Of a stretch of DNA of 35,492 nt, positions 19,617-32,894 are shown in pieces. This DNA is from Candidatus Nanopelagicales bacterium (lineage in GTDB: Bacteria > Actinomycetota > Actinomycetes > S36-B12 > JBBRLC01). Made by a program: the position numbers and the translations under genes. The notes under the pieces are model-generated. The model had not been told where the DNA came from and did no database searches. It worked only from the letters and a program-made list of their open reading frames with translations. Numbering within the stretch: position 1 is the first letter of the stretch; each line of letters opens with the position of its first letter. The stretch spans positions 1-35,492 of the forward strand of contig JBBRLC010000001.1 in assembly GCA_038231595.1 (NCBI GenBank), written 5' to 3'.

Positions 19617-20875
19617 ATCGTGCTCCCATCGGTGGCGGTCGGGTCCGCTTGCATCCCGGTGGCCGGGTCAATGGGCGGTGGGACGGCACTGTTGGTGTTG
19701 AAAGGAATGTTGTAGTCAGTTCCATCAGGCCCGCCGATGGCCGGCCAACCTTCATCGGCGCGGATCTCGTCTCGGTTGCGGATGCCGACTAGGCGATGCG
19801 CTTGTGCGATTTGTGCGCGCTCCAGAGCCGATGCGCGCAGTAGCCCGGAGAAGTCGAATTGGGTCCATGTTGATTGCCCGCCGGGGACCATGGCGTTCCA
19901 CACCGTTTCGAGCTGCCATGCGAACGGCAGCAGCGTGTGGGTTGCGTACCCCTGATCAATCGCGTCGAGCCCTTTTCCGCCGCCCTGGGAGGCGTGAGCA
20001 ACGATCGCCATGATCCGTTGCAGTGGCACTCCGAACCATCCGCAAATCTCTTCGCGCAGCAGCGACCGCGTTCCTAGGAACTGGGCGTTCTCCGGTGTGA
20101 CCGACATCTGCTTCCACGAAGCGCCGCCAGATAGCACCGCAACCCGGTGGGCGTTGGCGAGCCCGGAGTTCCCAACCTCCCAACCGTCTTTGAGCGCTCT
20201 GGCTCCTTTGCGATCCAATTCGCCCGGGGCCTCGATCACGCCACTTGGTGAAGTGCCGTTACGGAAGAAGTTCGCGCCGTACTCGTTGACGTCGGCCGCC
20301 AGGCCCCAGTTGATGCGCTGGTAAGTCACTGGATCAACGCCAGCCAAATCCCCTGGCAACATAAGGCCGGTGAAATGCTTGACCTTGTCTCCGCCGTAAT
20401 ACTCGTTATTGATCTTGAATAACTTGGCGCGAGTCGCCGAGTCTCGATACACCGACACTCGGTCGGGGTGCAGGATCTGCAGCTGCAACGGGTTCCCCTG
20501 TGAGTCGGACTGCGTGACAAACGTGAACGCGTTGCCGCGTAGCGTGATCGACGCGACGATTTGCCCGATCCCAGCCTGCAAAGACAAGTCCGGCCCGAAA
20601 GGCTCGGCGACGATCTGCGGTTGACTCGCGAGACGCTGCTTCACTCCGTGGCGGTCACCGGTGTATGCGGCGAAGGGCAAGATGCCCATGTCGTTGTGCA
20701 ACACCTTGACGCAGTTGAGCACCGTCGACACACCCAATGCGGCCGACTCGTTGAGGAAGCCACCGACGCTACCGCCGAAGGATGAGTTCGGCGGTAGCGA
20801 CGAGTCGCCAAACTCGGCTCCCCGAGTTGTCACCGAGTTGCGCGCGTTGCGAACCGCACGACCGAAAAGATCCAC
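19613..20875 (-). CDS. portal protein
   Basis: 420 aa between the terminase and the protease. GTG start. Confidence 0.9.
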   Translation of the reverse strand: MDLFGRAVRNARNSVTTRGAEFGDSSLPPNSSFGGSVGGFLNESAALGVSTVLNCVKVLHNDMGILPFAAYTGDRHGVKQRLASQPQIVAEPFGPDLSLQAGIGQIVASITLRGNAFTFVTQSDSQGNPLQLQILHPDRVSVYRDSATRAKLFKINNEYYGGDKVKHFTGLMLPGDLAGVDPVTYQRINWGLAADVNEYGANFFRNGTSPSGVIEAPGELDRKGARALKDGWEVGNSGLANAHRVAVLSGGASWKQMSVTPENAQFLGTRSLLREEICGWFGVPLQRIMAIVAHASQGGGKGLDAIDQGYATHTLLPFAWQLETVWNAMVPGGQSTWTQFDFSGLLRASALERAQIAQAHRLVGIRNRDEIRADEGWPAIGGPDGTDYNIPFNTNSAVPPPIDPATGMQADPTATDGSTI

Positions 20876-21021
20876 TACCGATCGCCGCGCTCATCAGCGA
20901 ACGCGAAGCCCAACACGGCCAGTGACACGCCAAGCGCCAGAACCGCCCAGCGCAAACCGAACGTCGCGGCGAACCCCACCAGGCACAACAGTGCGGCGAT
21001 CTGACAGATCAGCGTTCGCAT
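20875..21021 (-). CDS. 48-aa two-TM membrane protein between TerL and portal (not in ORF track)
   Basis: Encodes MRTLICQIAALLCLVGFAATFGLRWAVLALGVSLAVLGFAFADERGDR. Its ATG overlaps the TerL stop by 1 nt, and its TAG overlaps the portal GTG by 1 nt. Confidence 0.5.
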   Translation of the reverse strand: MRTLICQIAALLCLVGFAATFGLRWAVLALGVSLAVLGFAFADERGDR

Positions 21022-22607
21022 CAGCCGTCCTCATCGTCGTCGGAATGTTGATGCCCGCAATCAAGGCAAGGAGCACTATCGGCAGGAAATTCGAAGTGAC
21101 ATTCGCAGTCGGAGCAGTTGCCGAGTTGGCCAAAAAAGAATGCCGAAGGCTGCGGCGCCTTGTCGTCGGGTTGTCGCACAGCCCACGCCGCTAACGCGAC
21201 CGCGTACAGCGGCGACAAGTCAACACCTTCGTCAGCATCGAAGATCCACTCCCCTTTGCCAGACGAACGACGCGCCACCTGAACAGAAACACCCAAGTCG
21301 GCGTCACCACGGTGCGCCAACGTCCCCGCGTTCACCGCGTCGAACAGCGCCGCACATGCGCGACGCACCTCGGTCGATGTCATCGCATCGAAACCGGGCA
21401 GATCCTCAAAATCGGTACTCAGCGATCCCGCGGCCATCGAAGATGCCAACACGACACTCGATGCGCCATGGCGCTCTACTCGATCGGTCACCCAAGGAAC
21501 AACCCAGGCGACACCCTCATCGTGGGCGACCAGCTCGACGTGCAGAATCCCGTCACCACGCAGCGATGCAACCGCAACCGATGACCACGCCCGATCCGGC
21601 GTGACATGCACGCCGAACACGATGCGATCCCCAGGCGTTGAGTCCGGGTCGGTCAACTTCCACCACGCGGGCATGTGGAACAGCCCACCAATCGCGGAGG
21701 ATTCCCACCAACCCATGCGCTCGCGGGCGAACTCCGCCGGCGGAAGTGAACGACGCTCGGCCGCGATGTAAGTCTCGGTGATTCGCTTACCCATCGCAGG
21801 GTTCGCTTGCTGCCAAAACTTGCGATTGTCCAGTGAGCATCCGACCGCGTTGCGGTGATGGTCGCAATCCTTCGACGTGCATCCACCTTCGGGGGCGCAC
21901 CACTCGATGTAGACCAGCGACGGGTCTCCGCCTTCACGTCCGCGATCCCTGACGAGCTGCAATACCAGCGAGATCGCGAGACCGGCACTGGATGCGTACA
22001 GAACCATCGGATTCGGACGGGCCGACAGCGTGGGCAGCAACGCGCCCATCATCTCGGCGGTCAGGAACAAAGCCTCATCAAGAATGACAAGGTCGCCGGA
22101 CAGTCCACGGCCCGATGCCTGGGATCGAGCAATGAAGATGATCCGCGAGCCGTTTACAAACTCGAAAGACTCTTCACCGTTGGAGAACGACACCCGTGAA
22201 ATACGTCGGGAAAGTTCCGGGGAAGATCGATACAACTTGAGCATCGCCAGGAACGCCTCATGCGCGGTCTTGTACCGGTGCGCCGACCAAACAACGAGCT
22301 GATCGGGCTTCGATATTGCGACCAGGAGAGCAACCGGCATGAGCACGCCGACGCTCTTGCCGTTCTGCCGGGACTCGATCAGGGCCGCCTCGAGAGCGGC
22401 CCACCGCTCTTCACCGTCAGGACCAGACACAACCGAGAGAATGGCGTCGAGCGCGAGGGCCTGTTCGGCGTCAAGGTCGAGGCCGAACACCTTGACCAGC
22501 GAGACCGCGAGGTCGCCCAGGGAATCCGAGCGCTCAGGAATCCACAAATGCGCCGGGTCGACCCGCTTACGCGCCAGAACGACGCTGCCTGCGCTCAAGG
22601 AGCTCAT
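21021..22607 (-). CDS. terL: terminase large subunit
   Basis: Walker A-like SRQNGKSVG and Walker B LVILDEA, followed by a C-terminal nuclease-like half. 528 aa. Confidence 0.92.
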   Translation of the reverse strand: MSSLSAGSVVLARKRVDPAHLWIPERSDSLGDLAVSLVKVFGLDLDAEQALALDAILSVVSGPDGEERWAALEAALIESRQNGKSVGVLMPVALLVAISKPDQLVVWSAHRYKTAHEAFLAMLKLYRSSPELSRRISRVSFSNGEESFEFVNGSRIIFIARSQASGRGLSGDLVILDEALFLTAEMMGALLPTLSARPNPMVLYASSAGLAISLVLQLVRDRGREGGDPSLVYIEWCAPEGGCTSKDCDHHRNAVGCSLDNRKFWQQANPAMGKRITETYIAAERRSLPPAEFARERMGWWESSAIGGLFHMPAWWKLTDPDSTPGDRIVFGVHVTPDRAWSSVAVASLRGDGILHVELVAHDEGVAWVVPWVTDRVERHGASSVVLASSMAAGSLSTDFEDLPGFDAMTSTEVRRACAALFDAVNAGTLAHRGDADLGVSVQVARRSSGKGEWIFDADEGVDLSPLYAVALAAWAVRQPDDKAPQPSAFFFGQLGNCSDCECHFEFPADSAPCLDCGHQHSDDDEDG

Positions 22608-22959
22608 CGACGTCGTCCTTTGCGCGCGGCTTGGACTTCTCGATCTCTGTCAGCGTCGCCCGATACTCGCGCGCCAAACCGGCCAAGGCGGTTGGCGGCG
22701 TTCGTGGCGAACGCAGCTTGTGCTGCAGCTCGCGGGCGACGTCGGCCAGCGACATCAAGACCTCGCGGTCGCCTGAAATCTCATCCGAGATCGGGGTGAC
22801 TTCAGCGATGACGGGAGCCAGTTCCGGTAGACCCATCTTGCGCGCCCTCGCCGCTAACACTCGACACGAAACCTGGCAGAACCGCGCCCGCGACCCATGC
22901 GTTGGCGGAGTGAAAACCTTGCCGCATCGGGCGCAGAGTCGGGTGCCGCGAACCACCAT
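22567..22959 (-). CDS. terS: terminase small subunit (zinc-ribbon type)
   Basis: 130 aa overlapping the TerL start. CARCGKVF…FCQVSC Cys cluster. RBS AGAGGA. Confidence 0.7.
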   Translation of the reverse strand: MVVRGTRLCARCGKVFTPPTHGSRARFCQVSCRVLAARARKMGLPELAPVIAEVTPISDEISGDREVLMSLADVARELQHKLRSPRTPPTALAGLAREYRATLTEIEKSKPRAKDDVDELLERRQRRSGA

Positions 22960-23137
22960 GCCTACTGTCCTCTGCGAGCCATGCTGACTCCTCTTCGCGG
23001 GGAAAACCGCAGGTCAGAAGGCTCGGGACGTAAACGCTCACGCGCTTAGACGGATAAAGCTAGATGCGGGTCTTGGCGCACGCGGGGAGCGCCGCCAACT
23101 TTTGAGGCACCCCCGGTGCGCGCCAATCCAGTCCAAT

Positions 23138-23422
23138 TCACCACGAGCGCGACGGCGTCGCGGGCTGGGGGGTGAGCCTGTCGCGCTTGGAACTGTTACA
23201 GCCACAGTGGGCGGGCTGGCAGTTGGCGGGGTCGAACTGCGATCCGCCGAGTGCGAGAGGGACGACGTGGTCGACGCTCGGCGCCCAGGTGCTGCGGGGT
23301 CGGGCGTTGAAGTCGAGGGGTTTGTGGCATAGCGCGCAGTGCGTGGCGTTGGCTAAGACCTGTGCGCGCAGCGTGCGCCACCGCTGGGTCTTGGTGGGCT
23401 TAGACGCCGACTGACTTGGCAT
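23138..23422 (-). CDS. HNH endonuclease
   Basis: HCALCHKPL…VDHVVPLALGG…NCQPAHCGCNSSK. Confidence 0.9.
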   Translation of the reverse strand: MPSQSASKPTKTQRWRTLRAQVLANATHCALCHKPLDFNARPRSTWAPSVDHVVPLALGGSQFDPANCQPAHCGCNSSKRDRLTPQPATPSRSW

Positions 23423-23681
23423 CCGTTACCGGAACCTTGATTGATTTGGTCACGGCATCGAGGCCGATCTCGACGAGCTTCGCGTCTGTGAATGTGGCGA
23501 GGTCTGTGCTTTCGCCTTCGGATGTGGTGAGCACACAGGTCCAGCCGTCGTCGGTCTCGCTCCGTTGCCATTCGAATGTGAATGTCATGGCAGTGGTCGG
23601 TGTCTCAAGGACATTGAAGCTCCCCACGGCTAAAGCCGGGGGATTCCCTGTAACCCTCGCGGGTTGAGGTTCCTGTTTCAT
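23400..23681 (-). CDS. hypothetical protein (93 aa)
   Basis: ATG preceded by GAGAGGG. Lies between tnpB and HNH. Confidence 0.6.
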   Translation of the reverse strand: MKQEPQPARVTGNPPALAVGSFNVLETPTTAMTFTFEWQRSETDDGWTCVLTTSEGESTDLATFTDAKLVEIGLDAVTKSIKVPVTDAKSVGV

Positions 23682-23683
23682 AG

Positions 23684-23860
23684 ACTGTCGCCCTCTCGCA
23701 CTAGGTGCGGGAAGGTCTTACACCATCTCCGCAGGCTGAAACCGTCCTCCCGACGGCCAAAATGTTGCGTGCCGCGTTCACGTCCCGGTCGTGAACTGTC
23801 CCGCATTGCGGGCACGTCCATTCCCGAACATTCAACGGCATCTTCCCTTGCAAGTGTCCG
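23684..23860 (-). ncRNA. putative omega-RNA (reRNA) scaffold overlapping the tnpB 3' end
   Basis: Placement follows known TnpB loci. Stem-loops occur at 23776-23796 (7 bp), 23800-23812 (5 bp) and 23742-23756 (5 bp). Boundaries are not determined. Confidence 0.3.
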
Positions 23861-24837
23861 CAGTCCGAACACGTCTTGCTTGACGGATACCAGCGGTCGA
23901 TTGCTATGACTTCCCGCCCGTACCATTCGGCTTTGTATTCCAACTGGCGGCGGAACTCGGCCCATGCCACGTCCGAAATGGCGCGTGAGAGGGAACGATT
24001 CGCCAACATGTTCCGCACCGTTAAGTCTTCGATCATCACCGTTTGGTTCTCGCGGATCAACCGAGTCGTGAGTTTGTGTAACTGGTCGTGCCGTCGGTCT
24101 TTGATTCGTGCGTGAACTCGGGCCACTTTGGTACGGGCCTTCGCCCGGTTCGCTGACCCCTTCTGTTTCCTCGCTAACGCGCGTTGCGCCTTCACAAGCC
24201 GCTGATGGTCTGTTCTGGCGTGCCGCATGTTCGCAACTTTCTCCCCCGTTGACAGGGTGAGAAGGTGCGTGAGGCCAACGTCCACTCCAACTTGAGTAGT
24301 TGTTGGGGGGAGCGGTTCGATCCGGGTTTCGACCAGAATGGATATGTGGTATCGCCCCGCCGAATCTTTTGACACTGTTACTGAACTTGGGGTTGCCCCG
24401 TCTGGGAGTGCGCGCGACCACACAATGTTGAGCGGTTCCGCCATCTTCGCCAGTTTGATCTGCCCGTCGCGGTGGGTGAACCCGAACGAGGTGTACGTCG
24501 CGGACTGCTTCGACTTGTGGCGGGACTTGAACTTGGGGTACTTCGCGCGGTTCCCCCAGAAGTTCACGTAGGCGGTTTGTAGTTGGCGTACCGCTTGCTG
24601 TAGCGGCACGGACGCGACCTCGCTCAACCATTGGGTGTCCGGGTCGTGTCGCCATTGCGCGATCCACCGAGCAGATTCGGCGTAAGTGACTTTCTTGTGG
24701 TCTTGGGTGTAAGCGCGGGAACGTTCCGCTAACGCCCGGTTGTACACGTAACGCACGGAACCGAACGTGCGTGCTAACTGTTGTTCCTGCTCCGGGGTTG
24801 GGTAGAAACGGTACTTGTACGCCCGCTTCACCAACAT
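23701..24837 (-). CDS. tnpB: TnpB (IS200/IS605-family OrfB, RuvC-type RNA-guided nuclease), apparently intact
   Basis: N-terminal AYKYRFYPT. RuvC D (VGVDVGL) and E (VMIEDL), zinc finger CSDCG…CPQCG, and final D (HDRDVNAARNI). Confidence 0.93.
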   Translation of the reverse strand: MLVKRAYKYRFYPTPEQEQQLARTFGSVRYVYNRALAERSRAYTQDHKKVTYAESARWIAQWRHDPDTQWLSEVASVPLQQAVRQLQTAYVNFWGNRAKYPKFKSRHKSKQSATYTSFGFTHRDGQIKLAKMAEPLNIVWSRALPDGATPSSVTVSKDSAGRYHISILVETRIEPLPPTTTQVGVDVGLTHLLTLSTGEKVANMRHARTDHQRLVKAQRALARKQKGSANRAKARTKVARVHARIKDRRHDQLHKLTTRLIRENQTVMIEDLTVRNMLANRSLSRAISDVAWAEFRRQLEYKAEWYGREVIAIDRWYPSSKTCSDCGHLQGKMPLNVREWTCPQCGTVHDRDVNAARNILAVGRTVSACGDGVRPSRT

Positions 24838-24917
24838 GGTTACATACTAGCACTCTAGTAGATCACTTCGCTAACCCCATAGCTAAAGCAAGGGGCTTGC
24901 GCTCAGCATCCAGCCTG

Positions 24918-25018
24918 CATTGATGAGGGACAGGCGCGTTGTTTGGGCGTGTGCCAAAGCCTCATCTAGTGATGGGTTGGCCTTGTCGTTCACTGTCGCC
25001 CTGTCCTCTTCATCAATG
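24918..25018. repeat. about 20-bp imperfect inverted repeat pair enclosing 60 bp, upstream of tnpB
   Basis: CATTGATGAGGGACAGGCG (24918-24936) pairs with CGCCCTGTCCTCTTCATCAATG (24997-25018), giving 19 pairs with 3 bulges. Confidence 0.7.
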
Positions 25019-25020
25019 AC

Positions 25021-25053
25021 GAAACCCGCGCACCTGTGGGGGTGGCGGGTTTC
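25021..25053 (-). terminator. strong GC-rich stem-loop (terminator of the replication operon, or part of the IS left end)
   Basis: GAAACCCGC…GCGGGTTTC forms a 9-bp stem, extendable by CACC/GGTG with one bulge, with a 6-nt loop. No T-tract follows. Confidence 0.35.
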
Positions 25054-25164
25054 GTGTGTGGCACACAGTTCTGCCACTGCGTTTCAGTGTCGCATATGGT
25101 TGGGCATGTTGTCTAGTTAGTGTCGGATTCGTTGTGAAGTTCGTCCAGCAGTTCCCGATGATCT

Positions 25165-25965
25165 TCATGCCTGTTGCCTGCGGTGTTTGGTGCGTGCAGT
25201 GTCGGCGTTGAGTAGGTCGAGTACGTCGCCTACGCGGTACATCTCACGCCCGTCGCGGTCGAGTCCGTGGGCGAGTAGGCGCCCGCGCATGACCCATCGG
25301 CTGATGGTTTGGCGGGTGACGGGTTGTCCCAGGTTTGTGACTGCTTTGGCGATGAGGGATGCGTGGGCTAGGTGGTCGTCGGCTGCGGCGAGTAGCCATG
25401 TGCGGCGTTCGTTGACGCCGTATTCGGTGGCGCAGGTGGTGCAGGTGACGGTTGGGGCGTCGGGTTTGCAGTACAGGTCGCCGCCGTCGTTGGGGCATGG
25501 GCCGGAGAAGAGTAGGTCGGCGGGGCGGTCGATGGCTTTGATGAGTGCGCGGTGGGCGTCATGCAACTCACTGAACGCCTCAGAGGCTTCAGGACGGTAT
25601 GAAAGCCATTGGGTTGCCCCAAGTAGCCAACCCGCCTGATGACCCGTTAGGGACGCTCCTGGGGGCTTTGTGGGGGGGTTGGCGGGGCGGTGTTCCACGA
25701 CATGGGTGACCCAGGCGCCGATTGTGTTGGTGACGATCCATGCGACCTCAGAGGCAGCCGGGTCGTACGGCAGCGGCTTCTCCGCGCTTCGACGCCCCTC
25801 GGAATCGCCGCCCATGCGTGTCTGGCGGGCAATCGCCAACTCGAGGTCGTGCCACAGGGCGGCGATGTCGCCTAGGGCCTGGTCCAGTTTGGTGCGGCAG
25901 GCGTTGCACATGATGGCCGTGTCGGGCAGGGCACGCCCGCATTGGGCGCAATCGTTGGCGCTCAT
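25165..25965 (-). CDS. zinc-ribbon protein with C-terminal MerR/excisionase-like HTH (possible regulator)
   Basis: ATG 25965 overlaps the upstream stop (ATGA). CAQCG…CNAC and CPNDGGDLYC…CTTC Cys clusters. C-terminal VTRQTISRWVMRGRL…YRVGDVLDLL. Confidence 0.75.
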   Translation of the reverse strand: MSANDCAQCGRALPDTAIMCNACRTKLDQALGDIAALWHDLELAIARQTRMGGDSEGRRSAEKPLPYDPAASEVAWIVTNTIGAWVTHVVEHRPANPPTKPPGASLTGHQAGWLLGATQWLSYRPEASEAFSELHDAHRALIKAIDRPADLLFSGPCPNDGGDLYCKPDAPTVTCTTCATEYGVNERRTWLLAAADDHLAHASLIAKAVTNLGQPVTRQTISRWVMRGRLLAHGLDRDGREMYRVGDVLDLLNADTARTKHRRQQA

Positions 25966-26321
25966 CGGTCCTCCGTGGTGGGTGGGCATCGGTGTTCGAG
26001 ATGGACAACGACGGCGGCGCTGGCGAGGTGCTGGGAGTCGCGGCGATACAGCAAAGCGCCGATGAGTTGATACGACGCCAGCCCGGCGATGACGGCAAGG
26101 AGTTCGTCACGGTAGGTAACCGGCTGTGCGTCGGCGATGGCTCCGAGTGCGGCAACGTCGTTGTCGTATCCGACGAGCACATCGGCTCGGCATTGCGGGC
26201 AGCGATGTTCCCTGACGGTGCGTCTCAAGGTTGTCTCAATCTGTGGGGTGGGCCGCAACGTTGAGCACCGGAGGCAGGCAGCGCATTGGTAGGGATCGCC
26301 GGGGTAGTCCTTGTAGAGCAT
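25962..26321 (-). CDS. Cys-rich hypothetical protein; start uncertain
   Basis: Track ORF 25962..26615. The first 98 codons are dominated by A/T-ending codons and are built from the GTTGTTG repeats, so the ATG at 26321 is used here. Confidence 0.5.
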   Translation of the reverse strand: MLYKDYPGDPYQCAACLRCSTLRPTPQIETTLRRTVREHRCPQCRADVLVGYDNDVAALGAIADAQPVTYRDELLAVIAGLASYQLIGALLYRRDSQHLASAAVVVHLEHRCPPTTEDR

Positions 26322-26425
26322 CGGGATGCTCAGCCCGCAGGTGGTGCATCGCAGCTCGCGGTCGATGTGGCTGCCCTGTGGATAACTCGCCGCTGACCGG
26401 ATCGGTTTGCCGCGATTTGTAGGCA

Positions 26426-26600
26426 GGTTGTTGGAAGTTGTTGAAGTTGTTGAACAACAACCCCCTGTACAACTATCCTCACCCGCGAATCCGGCATTTT
26501 TAGTATCTATGCAGGTCAGAGCGTTGTTACCATTTTGTGACCATGTCGAATTTTGTACGGGAGGTTGTTGGTCAACAACTTTCAACAACCTTTTGTTGAT
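26426..26600. promoter_or_regulatory. putative replication origin: GTTGTTG/CAACAAC iteron clusters flanking an AT-rich spacer
   Basis: GTTGTTG occurs at 26427, 26437, 26446 and 26564. CAACAAC occurs at 26455, 26573 and 26583. Variants are at 26523 and 26595. The spacer 26463-26560 is about 46% G+C by my count. Confidence 0.55.
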
Positions 26601-26611
26601 CTTCGAGGGCA

Positions 26612-28966
26612 TCATCTTGGCTTCGATTCGCCCAGTTTGAAACGCCCCTGATCGTTAGTTATCCACAGGAGATCGATAGCGAGTTCAGTGGCGTCACCTT
26701 GGAACTTCCGGCTGCTCTCAGCGGCCCTCGCAAAGCAGCTCTTGGTGCATCCGCCGCCTTTGTCTTCGTGGTATTTGGCGGTGTCGTGGGCTTCGATGAT
26801 GCCCCTGTATCGCAGTGCCACCTTCTTGAGGTGGTCACCTAGTTCGGTGTCGTTGGCGATCTGCCGGCGGGCATCGGAGCGGCCTTTGTTCTCGTTGAGG
26901 TCGCCGCGTTCGGTGGCCCGCATCGCCATGATTCCGTCACGTACCGTGTTCGATGCGTCGATGAGAACGCCGGATAGCTCCCACATGGCGTCGTCGATGT
27001 CGCCTCCACCGTGGAGTAGCGACAGGGCTACGGCTGCCTTCAGGCGGCACATAACGAGGTGGCCGTCTAGGGCGTCGATGGCAAACTTGTTCTGTTTGCG
27101 CTTGTTGTTGCGGACGTAGTCGACGACGTGTTGTGGCATTTGCACCTCAACCATGCGTTCGGTGGTGGTGCCGCCGTGTGCGATGGGTGGGCGCCAGTCG
27201 AGCGGGTCAGGTGTGGGCGGCTCAACGTCGGGCATGTGGGGGTCGATGGTGGGTAGCCATAGGAACCGTTGTGGCGTGCCCGCTGCTGTGGCATCGGCGC
27301 CTAGCAGGGCTTCTGCGCGCCCTGGTTGTACGCCTGCAATGAGCGCGAGTCGGTAGGCGTGTTCGGAGAGGTGTCGGCGACGGCTGGGGTCTGCGTTGTG
27401 GGTGCCGACTGCCGATCCTGACCAGATTGAGCGTAGGAACGGCCCGATCGTGGCGCCTTGCCTAGAGGACAGGGCGGCGAAGGTGTCGATTTCGTCGATG
27501 GTGACGATGGCGCGCCAGCGTGTTTGCACCCATTCGACGTGTCCGTCTTGCTTTTGTGGCTCGATGTAGAGGGCGATGAGTCCTTCGCCTGAGCCGATGC
27601 CGAATGATTCAACTTCGTCGTAGCCGAGTAGTTCGCGTGCGACTGAGGATGTGACGGATTTGCCGGAGCCTGATGGGCCGACGAGGGCGACGTAGGTGTT
27701 GAGGCTGCCTTGTGATCCGACTGTGGACGGCAGGACTAGGGACGGCCCGGTGGCGGCGATGATGCGGGCGAGTGTGGCGCCTAGTAGCGCCCAGGGGCTG
27801 ATGAGTCGTGCGCGGGCGAACGTGGCGACGTGGGTGAGTGTCGGCGTGGCTGCGAAGAAGGCAGTCTCGACGGCCAGGGGTGGCACCCAGGCGGTGCGGG
27901 AGATGAGCGCGGGTGGCGATTGTGCAGATTGTTCAGTATTTGGCTCGTTGACTGACACACGCGAAGGCGCTGCCTGTGCGCCATAGCCGGATGCGGCGAG
28001 CGCCTTTGTGGCCGCCCGCATGTCGCCGTGGTGCTCAAGGCGGGCGTAGACGTAGAACTTGGTGGACGGCTGATCTGCGGGTAGGTCTGTTGATGTGGTG
28101 AAGACGTACATGTGGCGGTCGCGGGTAGTTGCGCTGATGCCGATGTCTTTGCCGGGGCGTCGCCATGCCTCGTTGGGTAGTCCGCCGCGTGTGGCGGTGT
28201 AAACGTGTCGCCACCCGTGGCGGGTGAGCAGTTCGGCCCAGTCGCCGCGTTCGTTGTAGTCGTCCACGGGCGAGTCGGAGCCGTGCAGCATTGATTTGCC
28301 TGTGGGCGTGGGTGTGGATACGGGCGCGACAGATTGGTCGAGGAAGCGCAGCAAGGCGTGCAGGGCGTCGCGTTCGACGTTGGTGAAGTCTGGGGTGTGT
28401 TCGGGCTGAGTGGCGTTGATGAGGACGTAGTTGGCGCCGAGGTCGTGGCCCTTGCGTCCTGTGGTGGGGGCGACGATGACGAATCCGCCTTCGCCACGCG
28501 TCTCGGCGAGCACCTTTTTGGCGGTGTCGTCGTAGGCGAGTTTCGTGTTGCCTAGTGCTGGGCCGTCGCTGACGCGGATGAACATGTGTAGCCCAGCGGT
28601 GGGCGACATTTCGACGCAACCGCCGAGCGCGCGGTCAAGTAGGTCGCCTAGCCCTGAGGCTTCGGCAACGGCTTTGATGTCTGTGATGGCACCGGCCTTG
28701 ACGGCGATGCCTTCAAGCTCCAACATCTCAACGCGCCCGGATGTCGCCCCGGTGAGCACGCCGATGCCGTCGTATTTGCCTGACGCCATCCATTCGATGA
28801 CCTGTTCACGGCTGGGGCGTTGGGTTTGGTAGTCCTTCCATGCGCCGAAGGGGCGTTTGTCGCGGTCGGGGTGGCTCGGTACGACGGCGTAGCCTGCGTC
28901 GAACCATCGCAGGGCTGCCGTTTGTAGCGCGCTGCTCGTTGGTGTGGCAGCGGTGTCCACGCCCAC
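26612..28966 (-). CDS. bifunctional primase-polymerase / helicase (PrimPol N-terminus, D5-like ATPase)
   Basis: GTG start. AGYAVVPSHPDRDKRPFGAWKDYQ…GIGVLTG. Walker A GPSGSGKS and Walker B IVTIDEID. Confidence 0.9.
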   Translation of the reverse strand: MGVDTAATPTSSALQTAALRWFDAGYAVVPSHPDRDKRPFGAWKDYQTQRPSREQVIEWMASGKYDGIGVLTGATSGRVEMLELEGIAVKAGAITDIKAVAEASGLGDLLDRALGGCVEMSPTAGLHMFIRVSDGPALGNTKLAYDDTAKKVLAETRGEGGFVIVAPTTGRKGHDLGANYVLINATQPEHTPDFTNVERDALHALLRFLDQSVAPVSTPTPTGKSMLHGSDSPVDDYNERGDWAELLTRHGWRHVYTATRGGLPNEAWRRPGKDIGISATTRDRHMYVFTTSTDLPADQPSTKFYVYARLEHHGDMRAATKALAASGYGAQAAPSRVSVNEPNTEQSAQSPPALISRTAWVPPLAVETAFFAATPTLTHVATFARARLISPWALLGATLARIIAATGPSLVLPSTVGSQGSLNTYVALVGPSGSGKSVTSSVARELLGYDEVESFGIGSGEGLIALYIEPQKQDGHVEWVQTRWRAIVTIDEIDTFAALSSRQGATIGPFLRSIWSGSAVGTHNADPSRRRHLSEHAYRLALIAGVQPGRAEALLGADATAAGTPQRFLWLPTIDPHMPDVEPPTPDPLDWRPPIAHGGTTTERMVEVQMPQHVVDYVRNNKRKQNKFAIDALDGHLVMCRLKAAVALSLLHGGGDIDDAMWELSGVLIDASNTVRDGIMAMRATERGDLNENKGRSDARRQIANDTELGDHLKKVALRYRGIIEAHDTAKYHEDKGGGCTKSCFARAAESSRKFQGDATELAIDLLWITNDQGRFKLGESKPR

Positions 28967-29047
28967 GCCCTGACCCTTCGTGTTGTAGTTGTTGGCGGTG
29001 TCAACCCGCGCCGCCCTCTGACCCCAGCGAACGACGCGGGCGACGTT

Positions 29048-31262: not shown

Positions 31263-31447
31263 GCGCCTCGTTCCACCTTCGGCGGTGGCGTCGGCAACTT
31301 CAACAGCACCAACACGTTCAGCGCCTTCGCTATCTCCGATAAGACGAACAGGTTGCTGTGGGCGAGTGTGCGTTTCTGCAAGGCGTCGAGTTTGCGTATC
31401 GCAGTCTCAGCGCGGACGCGCTGCTCGTGCGCCGCCATCCCGTTCAT
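31259..31447 (-). CDS. hypothetical protein (62 aa)
   Basis: Track ORF. ATGA overlaps at both ends. Confidence 0.6.
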   Translation of the reverse strand: MNGMAAHEQRVRAETAIRKLDALQKRTLAHSNLFVLSEIAKALNVLVLLKLPTPPPKVERGA

Positions 31448-32160
31448 GCCGTTGCCGCCATGAGTAGTGACTGCTCGACGGGGGTGAGGCTATGGCTTTC
31501 GGTGCGCCCCGTGAGCCGGTCGTGTTCGTCTATCAGCCCAGTAAGGAATGCGATCCCGCCAGCGGCGCCCCTACTGGCGTCCTCGGCAGCGGCGGCGGCG
31601 TCGGCGGCGTCGGCAGCGGCGGCAGCGGAGGCGATAGCGAGTTCAGCGGCAGCGGTGGTGACGGAGGCGATAGCGAGTTCAGCGGCAGCGGAGGCGTAGG
31701 CAGCGGCGTAGGTGGCGCCGTCGGAGCGTTTCACGAATTCGGCTTTCGCCGCATCCCTCGCGGCGTAGGCGTTCTCCCTGCTCGGGTTGTCCGCCCACTT
31801 CTCAGCCGCAACAATTGCTGCCTCGCACGCGGTCTTGTCCTCGGGGCGAACCGCCCCGAACACCCGACGCGCCGACCAGACGGCGAGACGAACCGATAGG
31901 ACTTGGCGTTCCTCGGGGGAGCCTGTCTCGGCGGTGCCGAACAGGCGCCCAATCAGCGGCACCAGCAGGTGCCGCTCCCCATCTTCCAGGCGGTCGTTCA
32001 CGTTGCGCGCCACTGTTGCCAGCACCGGATGCGTACACCCAGGGTGGTCTGAAAACTTTTCACCGGCGAGGATGGACACGTATTCCATCAAACAAGCCCC
32101 ATCCTCGGGGCGTTCGTGTGCGCCCTTCGCTAGCACGGGCATGAACTCTGGCGTTGTCAT
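31444..32160 (-). CDS. uncharacterised protein, tandem paralog A (238 aa, Ala-rich variable core)
   Basis: The start MTTPEF… at 32160 has the same GGAAGGTGTAACCAA leader as paralog B. Conserved N-terminal (about 135 aa) and C-terminal (about 45 aa) blocks. Confidence 0.8.
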   Translation of the reverse strand: MTTPEFMPVLAKGAHERPEDGACLMEYVSILAGEKFSDHPGCTHPVLATVARNVNDRLEDGERHLLVPLIGRLFGTAETGSPEERQVLSVRLAVWSARRVFGAVRPEDKTACEAAIVAAEKWADNPSRENAYAARDAAKAEFVKRSDGATYAAAYASAAAELAIASVTTAAAELAIASAAAAADAADAAAAAEDASRGAAGGIAFLTGLIDEHDRLTGRTESHSLTPVEQSLLMAATA

Positions 32161-32177
32161 TTGGTTACACCTTCCGT

Positions 32178-32894
32178 TCATGCCGTTGCCCCCATAAGTA
32201 GTGACTGCTCGACGGGGGTGAGGCTATGGCTCCCGGTGCGTTTCGTGAGCCGGTCGTGTTCGTCTATCAGTCCGGTGAGGAATACGATCCCGCCAGCGGC
32301 GCCCCTACTGGCGGCAGCGGCGGCAGCGGAGGCGATAGCGAGTTCAGCGGCAGCGGAGGCGTCGAACGCGAAGTCCGCGCAGATTGCGGCGTAGACTTCG
32401 GCGGCAGCGGTGGGGGAGGAGGCGCAGATAGCGAAGCCCGCGGCAGAGACGCCGTCCTCGGCAGCGGCGGCAGCGGAGGAGACGGAGGCAGCGGCGGCAG
32501 CGGCGTTCTCCCTGCTCGGGTTGTCCGCCCACTTCTCAGCCGCCACAATGGCTGCCTCGCACACCGCCCTGTCCTTCCGGCGAAGATCCCCGAACACCCG
32601 TCGCACCGACCAGACGGCGAGACGAACCGACAAAACTTGCCGCTCTGCGGGGGTGCCCGCCTCGGCGGTGCCGAACAGGCGCCCAATCAGCGGCACCAGC
32701 AGGTGCCGATCCGCATCGGCCAGGCGGTCGTTCACGTTGCGCGCCACTGTTGCCAGCACCGGATGCGTACACCCAGGCCGGTCTGAAAACTTTTCACCGG
32801 CGAGGATGCTCACGTATTCCATGAGACACGCCCCATCCTCGGGGCGTGCGTGTGCGCCCTTCGCTAGCACGGGCATGAACTCTGGCGTTGTCAT
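32178..32894 (-). CDS. uncharacterised protein, tandem paralog B (238 aa)
   Basis: Near-identical N- and C-terminal blocks to paralog A, with a divergent Ala-rich centre. Confidence 0.8.
   Translation of the reverse strand: MTTPEFMPVLAKGAHARPEDGACLMEYVSILAGEKFSDRPGCTHPVLATVARNVNDRLADADRHLLVPLIGRLFGTAEAGTPAERQVLSVRLAVWSVRRVFGDLRRKDRAVCEAAIVAAEKWADNPSRENAAAAAASVSSAAAAAEDGVSAAGFAICASSPTAAAEVYAAICADFAFDASAAAELAIASAAAAAASRGAAGGIVFLTGLIDEHDRLTKRTGSHSLTPVEQSLLMGATA

Follow-up and report, generated by a model that had tools for sequence, protein, structure and literature searches.

The window analysed here, a stretch of 35,492 bp that makes up the entire public record, is a tailed-phage genome in which almost all genes are located on the minus strand, and it probably received an insertion sequence (IS) of the IS1341 type containing only tnpB, which inserted into a variable slot of this uncultured actinophage, bordered by the last of the early genes on one side and by the HNH/terminase module on the other. 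The element itself is, on the basis of its sequence, a non-autonomous derivative of the IS200/IS605 family in which tnpB is the sole gene. Comparative evidence supports the view that the intact, stand-alone tnpB carries its own putative omega-RNA region, which overlaps the 3' end of the gene and the right end (RE) of the element.

The element and its insertion slot

On the minus strand, the early genes are arranged in the order WhiB, Cas4-like exonuclease, Prim-Pol primase and a 274-aa HTH-like protein, and they are followed by the TnpB element. After the element come a small ORF, an HNH endonuclease, a 130-aa ORF and the large terminase, and then the late module, which encodes the portal, protease, major head protein, tail proteins, endolysin and exonuclease. 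The initial annotation had placed tnpB between the replication genes and the HNH/terminase module, in the same orientation as the structural genes; the gene order agrees with this placement, and all these genes are indeed on the minus strand. The proteins of the phage share only 30-43% identity with proteins of Gordonia, Mycobacterium, Arthrobacter and Rhodococcus phages. A megablast search of positions 22500-26500 against phages revealed no DNA-level relative of the window in the phage collection, and exact-protein look-ups returned identical pieces solely in the sequencing run SRR19962015, which represents the same phage. The element and its surroundings contain the following features.

25165-25989, minus strand: phage gene upstream of the element (phrog_908, 274 aa, C-terminus MerR/HTH-like), which bounds the variable slot on the left
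25021-25053, minus strand: GC-rich hairpin 3' of the HTH-like gene, in the phage flank and outside the element
24914-24993, minus strand: left-flank ORF fragment that starts at GTG 24993 and runs into the left end (LE); in frame with the downstream ORF after removal of the element
23614-24913, minus strand: whole element of about 1300 bp, IS200/IS605-type, IS1341-like and TnpA-less (left boundary alternatively 24919); similarity to independent IS copies stops at these positions
24838-24913, minus strand: LE, with an imperfect hairpin at 24869-24901 and TGCTAGTAT at 24852-24844
23701-24837, minus strand: tnpB coding sequence, 378 aa, with RuvC residues D186/E270/D352 and zinc finger C323/C326/C342/C345 intact
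23400-23588, minus strand: downstream phage ORF of 62 aa, ATG at 23588, with no homologues anywhere
23138-23422, minus strand: HNH endonuclease, right border of the slot, followed by the 130-aa ORF and the large terminase (21021-22607)

The product of the 378-aa ORF had been described in the initial annotation as a TnpB with a complete RuvC triad and a CxxC...CxxC zinc finger, a description on which Pfam, NCBIfam and an alignment with ISDra2 TnpB concur. Pfam recognised HTH_OrfB_IS605, OrfB_IS605 (RuvC) and Cas12f1-like_TNB (zinc ribbon) with E values of 1e-23 to 1e-30, and the scores of these three TnpB domains (82.7, 106.2 and 103.6 bits) each exceed the respective cut-off. Among the NCBIfam models, NF040570 (guided_TnpB) gave 382.5 bits versus a cut-off of 100, and NF038281 gave 412.9 bits, slightly under its cut-off of 425. 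The alignment with ISDra2 TnpB covers residues 2-365 (E about 9e-77); the triad, located in GVDVG (D186), MIEDL (E270) and HDRDV (D352), corresponds to D191/E278/D361 of ISDra2, and the cysteines C323, C326, C342 and C345 match its four zinc ligands. The TnpB is apparently functional, and RNA-guided, TAM-dependent cleavage is the predicted activity. The report that no Y1 or serine TnpA is encoded nearby also stands: neither class of transposase gave a Pfam match in the neighbouring or other ORFs of the window, and the HUH...YxxxQ motif is absent from all six frames. An element without a transposase could move only with TnpA supplied in trans. An autonomous IS200/IS605 element (of the IS605/IS608/ISDra2 type) was also considered and rejected, because the element contains no Y1 HUH TnpA.

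The relatives used to define the ends of the element came from three sources: IMG/VR, a set with one genome per species, and metagenomes. The closest ones, with 63-75% aa identity, are present in Nocardia, Frankia, Rhodococcus and Parafrankia (Actinomycetota) or on metagenome contigs, and the closest copy of all is L167, on metagenome contig JGI1357J11328_10004068 (75% aa). The element most likely originates from an actinobacterial host. L167 sits in a bacterial contig, downstream of what appears, as read by eye, to be a 5S rRNA gene.

Past the stop codon of tnpB, the 3' flanks of the relatives remain conserved and consist of ...GAA(A/G)CAGGAA..., a variable stem, a GC-rich hairpin and the terminus ...GGGGAGGA(T/A)GTCAA. 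This right terminus, ...GGGGAG(G)A(T/A)GTCAA, is kept across phyla, and beyond it the copies diverge, six copies of Frankia umida included. The right end of the window copy reads CTTCAA rather than (A/T)GTCAA, a variant it has in common only with L167; both end in ...GGGGAGCTTCAA, and the two sequences part directly after it. Because L167 and the other copies diverge immediately past the shared terminus, the right end is placed at 23614, 87 nt downstream of the tnpB stop codon. On the left side, the similarity to L167 begins at CTGAGCGCAAGCCCC (24906), and the 13-nt linker that precedes it, CTGGATGCTGAGC, is similar to those of L167, L105 and L033, which together place the left end near 24913. 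It should be noted that each junction carries TCAATG (24923-24918 on the left, 23617-23612 on the right), so that the boundary is ambiguous by 6 nt. The left boundary is therefore at about 24913, possibly at 24919, and this assignment is based on family homology because neither an exact empty site nor a close phage relative was found. The initial annotation had given the extent of the element as 23684-25018; its right end lies 70 nt beyond the first of these positions, and its left end, at about 24913-24919, lies about 100 nt inside the second.

The termini defined in this way do not contain inverted terminal repeats; instead, the element has subterminal imperfect hairpins that it shares with other copies. 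Both the LE hairpin (24869-24901) and the RE hairpin (23621-23643) are homologous to hairpins of the relatives, the TCAA of the right terminus is shared, and the LE hairpin is conserved together with a GCTAnnnT motif. Positions 24874-24900 of the LE hairpin also gave a weak match of 10 bits to the part of our RNA covariance model R1 (described below) that corresponds to the RE hairpin; the fold energy of the LE DNA is no better than that of shuffled sequences. The LE contains TGCTAGTAT, an extended -10-like motif located 6 nt before the ATG, which may be the promoter of tnpB; a scan for sigma-70 consensus promoters found nothing. In terms of composition, the GC content of the element is 58.0% versus 62.3% for the window, which places it in the lowest 1.3% of equal-sized windows; this signal is mild, because the GC3 of tnpB (0.70) is near the value of the phage genes. 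A covariance-model search detected one copy of the element in the window.

Sequence comparison further indicates that tnpB is an accessory insertion in a variable slot and not a core gene of the phage, because its ends are shared with cellular IS copies and homologous slots are devoid of it. The latter were found in three distant relatives, in which the 274-aa gene has 31-55% aa identity. In L165, the HTH-like gene is followed by a gene of 166 aa, the small terminase and the large terminase; in L166, it is followed by genes of 65 aa, about 170 aa and 94 aa; and in Gordonia phage Lucky10, gp67 is followed by two small genes, an HNH gene and the genome end. None of the three slots contains tnpB. 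These data bear on two points raised by the initial annotation, which had asked whether the ORF is a conserved core gene without element ends, and had proposed an alignment with related phages lacking the insert. With respect to the first, the ends turned out to be those of cellular IS and the distant slots to be free of tnpB. With respect to the second, relatives without the insert do exist, and none of them is close enough to provide an exact empty site; such a site was not encountered in any collection searched (phages, IMG/VR and protein databases). No relative of the 274-aa flank gene is present in IMG/VR, and its best homologue anywhere (55% identity) is on a 2.2-kb contig. A gene in the L166 slot that looked T5orf172/GIY-YIG-like by eye received no Pfam support and was discarded.

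The flanks themselves provide some information on the insertion. When they are joined to form a virtual empty site, an in-frame ORF of 97 aa is obtained under either boundary, an outcome with a chance expectation of one in three, and this hints that the element may have split an ORFan of about 97 aa. The joined ORF has no homologue in phages or in a database of 5.8 billion proteins, its own 93-aa call excepted, nor does it resemble the small ORF of L164. Gene finding yields a 93-aa ORF whose start codon, ATG 23681, lies inside the right end of the IS, at ATGAAACAGGAA, which belongs to the element and is conserved in every relative. As for the phage hairpin at 25021-25053, a similar hairpin, as judged by eye, is present after the homologous gene in L164, and a terminator scan found no T-tract of the kind its rule specifies.

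The omega-RNA region, the predicted guide and the TAM position

The features of the RNA and of the sequences next to the two ends are listed below.

23614-23793, minus strand: omega-RNA (reRNA) scaffold region as modelled, from the covariance model and covariation
23741-23757, minus strand: S1 stem of 6 bp, strongly covarying, inside the coding region
23722-23735 with 23672-23688, minus strand: long-range stem that encloses the stop codon, from RNAalifold covariation
23691-23715, minus strand: S3 stem with the stop codon in its loop, from the combined structure
23647-23669, minus strand: S4 stem, from the combined structure
23621-23643, minus strand: S5, the RE hairpin; the tail ends CTTCAA at 23614
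23598-23613, minus strand: predicted 16-nt guide TGTCCTTGAGACACCG, the flank directly 3' of the right end, by the ISDra2 paradigm
24914-24917, minus strand: expected TAM position from family comparison, which reads CAGG versus the TGAC of the family
25012-25016, minus strand: TTGAT, just after the phage hairpin and some 95 nt beyond the left end

The structure was derived from 42 non-redundant right-end regions that were aligned with MAFFT, which is blind to structure. S1 and the long-range stem were obtained with RNAalifold, and three hairpins from the window's own fold were added to give the combined structure. Paired bases occupy 85.3% of the cells of this structure, versus 69.1% in shuffled alignments, of which none of the 500 reached the observed value, and at most 49.5% when the partners were slid. 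The covariation score behaves likewise (0.389, versus 0.144 after shuffling and at most 0.115 after sliding), and compensatory changes involving both sides were observed in 36 of the 45 pairs. The conserved structured RNA, consisting of the scaffold and the RE hairpin, spans positions 23757 to 23614 approximately. The covariance search for an omega-RNA that had been suggested in the initial annotation was carried out with a model built without the window, and this model detected positions 23614-23793 (minus strand) with 160.1 bits (E = 6e-38) over its full 178 positions; apart from the 10-bit LE hairpin, it has no other notable match in the window. Rfam 15 contains no family that matches the region, whether its gathering thresholds or E <= 1 is applied. 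Support for the RNA comes from comparison between sequences, because the fold energy of the single sequence is unexceptional (z = -0.5, not better than shuffles). As to the stem-loops that had been named as the probable scaffold, the one at 23742-23756 is the covarying stem S1, whereas the one at 23776-23796 gives a weak signal, and most of the scaffold (23735-23614) is located downstream of those that had been listed.

By analogy with ISDra2, whose guide paradigm is summarised in PMC13565253, the guide would correspond to the approximately 16 nt past position 23614, i.e. TGTCCTTGAGACACCG. The 20-mer of the guide region is unique within the window, and a search of IMG/VR with the 16-mer of the guide returned two exact matches, both in unrelated contexts without TGAC.

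A candidate for the TAM of the family emerges from the left flanks. TGAC is present 11-26 nt 5' of the LE hairpin in at least 21 related elements, about 15 of which are independent when the six Frankia umida copies are collapsed, and L003 and L171 likewise, and the background rate of this motif is about two per 400 nt. The two copies closest to that of the window, L167 and L168, both carry it. TGAC has been reported as the TAM of ISAba30 TnpB, and TGAT as that of ISTfu1 (PMC10787141). The window copy departs from this pattern: its 135 nt upstream of tnpB contain no TGAC, and the TAM position reads CAGG or, under the alternative left boundary, TCAA (24923-24920), neither of which matches the family motif. 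The copy in Thermobifida phage P1312 is also without TGAC, having TCAT at that place, and its right end is canonical. Either the left flank of the window copy may have been altered after insertion, or the TAM of its TnpB may differ from that of the family. The initial annotation had drawn attention to a TTGAT on the tnpB strand as a possible TAM. The pentamer is indeed there, at 25016-25012; as a TAM it was rejected on its position, about 95 nt outside the element, and the motif of the family is TGAC. Pairing rules for the guide and cleavage sites of TnpA were also applied to the left-end linker and yielded no consistent rule for the TAM.

A probable selfish passenger and the alternatives

An IS1341-type insertion in the phage would function as follows. 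Transcription may start at the TGCTAGTAT motif, or may reach the element by read-through from the phage operon, and by analogy with ISDra2, processing of the transcript would yield an omega-RNA with ~16 nt of phage flank (TGTCCTTGAGACACCG) at its 3' end. TnpB would then cut DNA paired with the guide beside a TAM, which is TGAC in related elements, and transposition would require TnpA in trans. Phage populations might retain the element passively, or the cutting of insertion-free alleles during co-infection might help to maintain it. The most plausible view of the window copy is that of a selfish passenger, in which a capacity for homing may or may not remain.

A more active role is conceivable, in which the TnpB-omega-RNA complex is a homing or exclusion nuclease that cuts related, insertion-free co-infecting phages at a TAM followed by TGTCCTTGAGACACCG, after which repair templated by the tnpB-carrying genome would copy the element and its neighbours (non-restorative homing, or marker exclusion). 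In favour of such a role, the nuclease and the scaffold are intact and the gene content of the slot varies among relatives. Non-restorative homing has been stated for phages and plasmids, with experimental support for plasmids (review PMC13565253), and for RNA-guided homing between co-infecting phages we found proposals in the literature and no demonstration in phages. The present flanks argue against this role because TGAC is absent at the left junction; the joined flanks, ...GCAGG/TGTCC... or ...CATCAA/TGTCC... (the slash marks the junction), do not offer TGAC beside the guide match. In addition, the searches recovered no relative that lacks the insertion and carries the target, and the window copy is indistinguishable from ordinary IS copies. 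We consider this role unlikely. The suggestion of the initial annotation that the element could bias inheritance of the locus among co-infecting relatives, or could be domesticated, is likewise weakened by the CAGG at the TAM position. The opposite view, that the element is an immobile relic that has lost its TAM, has no transposase and no consequential activity, and retains an intact ORF only through recent acquisition, also seems improbable to us. In its favour are the lack of TnpA, CAGG instead of TGAC at the left junction and the single copy within the window, and decayed relatives without the LE hairpin are known (L081 and L084). Against it stand a full-length protein that aligns end-to-end with ISDra2 TnpB and has kept every catalytic residue and zinc ligand, a scaffold that fits the family model over all 178 positions, and the retention of the LE hairpin and the promoter-like motif.

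TldR proteins are nuclease-dead, TnpB-derived repressors that have lost the RuvC residues and whose guide targets a host promoter. That tnpB would be a core or domesticated gene of the phage, coding for such a regulator or for a Cas12-like effector, and not a transposon remnant, is extremely unlikely, even though it is co-oriented with all the other genes: the ends of an IS are present, and the gene is missing from the homologous slot of the distant relatives examined. The TldR assignment was rejected because the catalytic triad is intact, and the guide region is simply flank; a type V CRISPR effector (Cas12f-like) was rejected because positions 20000-29000 contain no repeat array and the Cas12f models scored far below their cut-offs. 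A last scenario, to which we attach very little probability, combines several of the observations. The copy would have become fixed in the phage, having neither a transposase nor a TAM at its junction; it would split an ORFan whose downstream half can be re-initiated from the right-end ATG; and its TnpB-omega-RNA would exclude, or home against, co-infecting relatives that still carry TGAC and the guide match. If true, such a fixed copy would represent RNA-guided marker exclusion in a virus. The reading that we prefer remains that of an IS1341-type passenger inserted into the variable slot.

Phage-borne tnpB elements and related systems

The window TnpB has the same domain order, D/E/D triad and zinc finger as the TnpB of ISDra2 from Deinococcus radiodurans (PDB 8H1J, 8BF8 and 8EXA), and in both elements a structured RNA extends over the 3' end of tnpB and the right end. 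ISDra2 differs in that it has a TnpA and uses TTGAT as TAM, whereas the window element is devoid of TnpA and belongs to a family with the motif TGAC, in place of which this copy has CAGG. The IS1341-type copies of Actinomycetota (Frankia umida, Nocardia, Rhodococcus and L167) have homologous LE and RE hairpins and a homologous right terminus; they are chromosomal and mostly flanked by TGAC, whereas the window copy is phage-borne and flanked by CAGG. A different kind of parallel is provided by the free-standing homing endonucleases Seg and Mob of phage T4, which, like the window tnpB, are nuclease genes located between conserved genes in a variable slot; theirs is the mode of action that the homing reading proposes for the element (PMC13565253). 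Seg and Mob recognise their target via the protein; the window TnpB would use RNA and a TAM.

Homologues of TnpB are present in 453 of 50,697 phage records. Comparable tnpB-only genes include those of Thermobifida phage P1312 (65% aa identity), whose right-end terminus is the same as that of the family, Gifsy-1 gipA, the "transposase" genes of many mycobacteriophages, and those of Klebsiella phage vB_Kpn_ZCKp20p and cyanophage A-1(L). They occur in different phages and at different insertion sites, and none of these phages is close kin of the window phage. Some Klebsiella phage genes are annotated as RNA-guided TnpB. The copy in cyanophage A-1(L) is reported to be identical to IS copies of its host and to be induced during infection (bioRxiv 10.64898/2026.02.14.705889).

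In summary, the practical gains of this analysis are the corrected boundaries of the element, a covariation-supported omega-RNA model for a clade of actinobacterial TnpBs that has no match in Rfam, and the exposure of a gene-calling artefact, namely an ORF that begins within the right end of the IS. The missing TAM is a useful detail, like the boundaries and the RNA model, and none of these is surprising. Few prokaryotic genes are as common as TnpB-only insertion sequences, whose phage carriers are many and often cultured; the element of this actinophage is an ordinary further example of the phage-borne TnpB elements that are already known in hundreds of phages.

Reading frames at the element's junctions and relatives of its tnpB gene

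The 93-aa ORF 23400-23681 (P0032 in public protein sets) starts at an ATG located within the right end of the IS, the TnpA-less IS200/IS605-type element that carries tnpB, and this ATG is the ATGAAACAGGAA that is conserved in the RNA scaffold, i.e., the omega-RNA region of the element. The phage-derived portion of the ORF starts past 23614, and reading from the ATG at 23588 leaves 62 aa. P0032 is an ORFan for which no homologues were found. When the IS is removed, a left-flank ORF (24914-24993) is in frame with the right-flank ORF (23400-23613), and this holds for both candidate left boundaries of the element. The IS may have split a gene of ~97 aa; no homologue of the joined ORF was found.

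The nearest phage-borne relative of tnpB (65% at the amino acid level) is located on Thermobifida phage P1312 (L250; KT021004.1, 29.3-30.8 kb). The right end of this copy is canonical (...GGGGAGGAAGTCAA), and it has TCAT instead of TGAC 5' of its left end. The annotation of KT021004.1 places a long opposite-strand ORF across tnpB. Among the other relatives, six copies from Okeania and other cyanobacteria (L124, L132, L138, L139, L145 and L146) contain an insertion of ~50 nt (GCGGATGGGAACCCGCGTCGGCG...GGGAACGCCCAC), which lies inside the 3' coding region, directly before the first scaffold stem, and which may add a stem to the RNA or be an insertion in the protein.

A direct repeat and possible genome ends of the phage

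A 45-bp exact direct repeat, CCGCTGCCGCTGAACTCGCTATCGCCTCCGCTGCCGCCGCTGCCG on the minus strand, is present in two copies, 701 bp apart, in adjacent ORFs:

32312-32356, minus strand: repeat copy in ORF 32178-32894
31611-31655, minus strand: second repeat copy, in ORF 31444-32181

The second copy is the start point of a Logan contig of the same phage. At 23065-23090, between the HNH gene and a 130-aa ORF upstream of the terminase gene, two Logan contigs of this phage (run SRR19962015) abut and overlap. The assembly may be interrupted here because the physical genome ends (cos) lie at this point, or because of a variant; no terminal repeat is present in the window.

The 154-aa protein encoded at 30374-30838 matches WhiB-like regulator families, and its last ~50 (C-terminal) residues also weakly match HNH-endonuclease PHROGs.

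A candidate replication origin

Only two copies of the perfect DnaA-box consensus TTATCCACA are present in the window, in inverted orientation, with 0.05 expected by chance:

26377-26385, minus strand: DnaA box, perfect match
26659-26667, plus strand: DnaA box, perfect match

Nested inverted repeats lie between the two boxes (26425-26472 with 26553-26591) and contain GTTGTTGA-type motifs. The encompassing segment, 26362-26682, has a reduced GC content and is located where the Prim-Pol gene meets a 217-aa ORF. It may be the replication origin of the phage.
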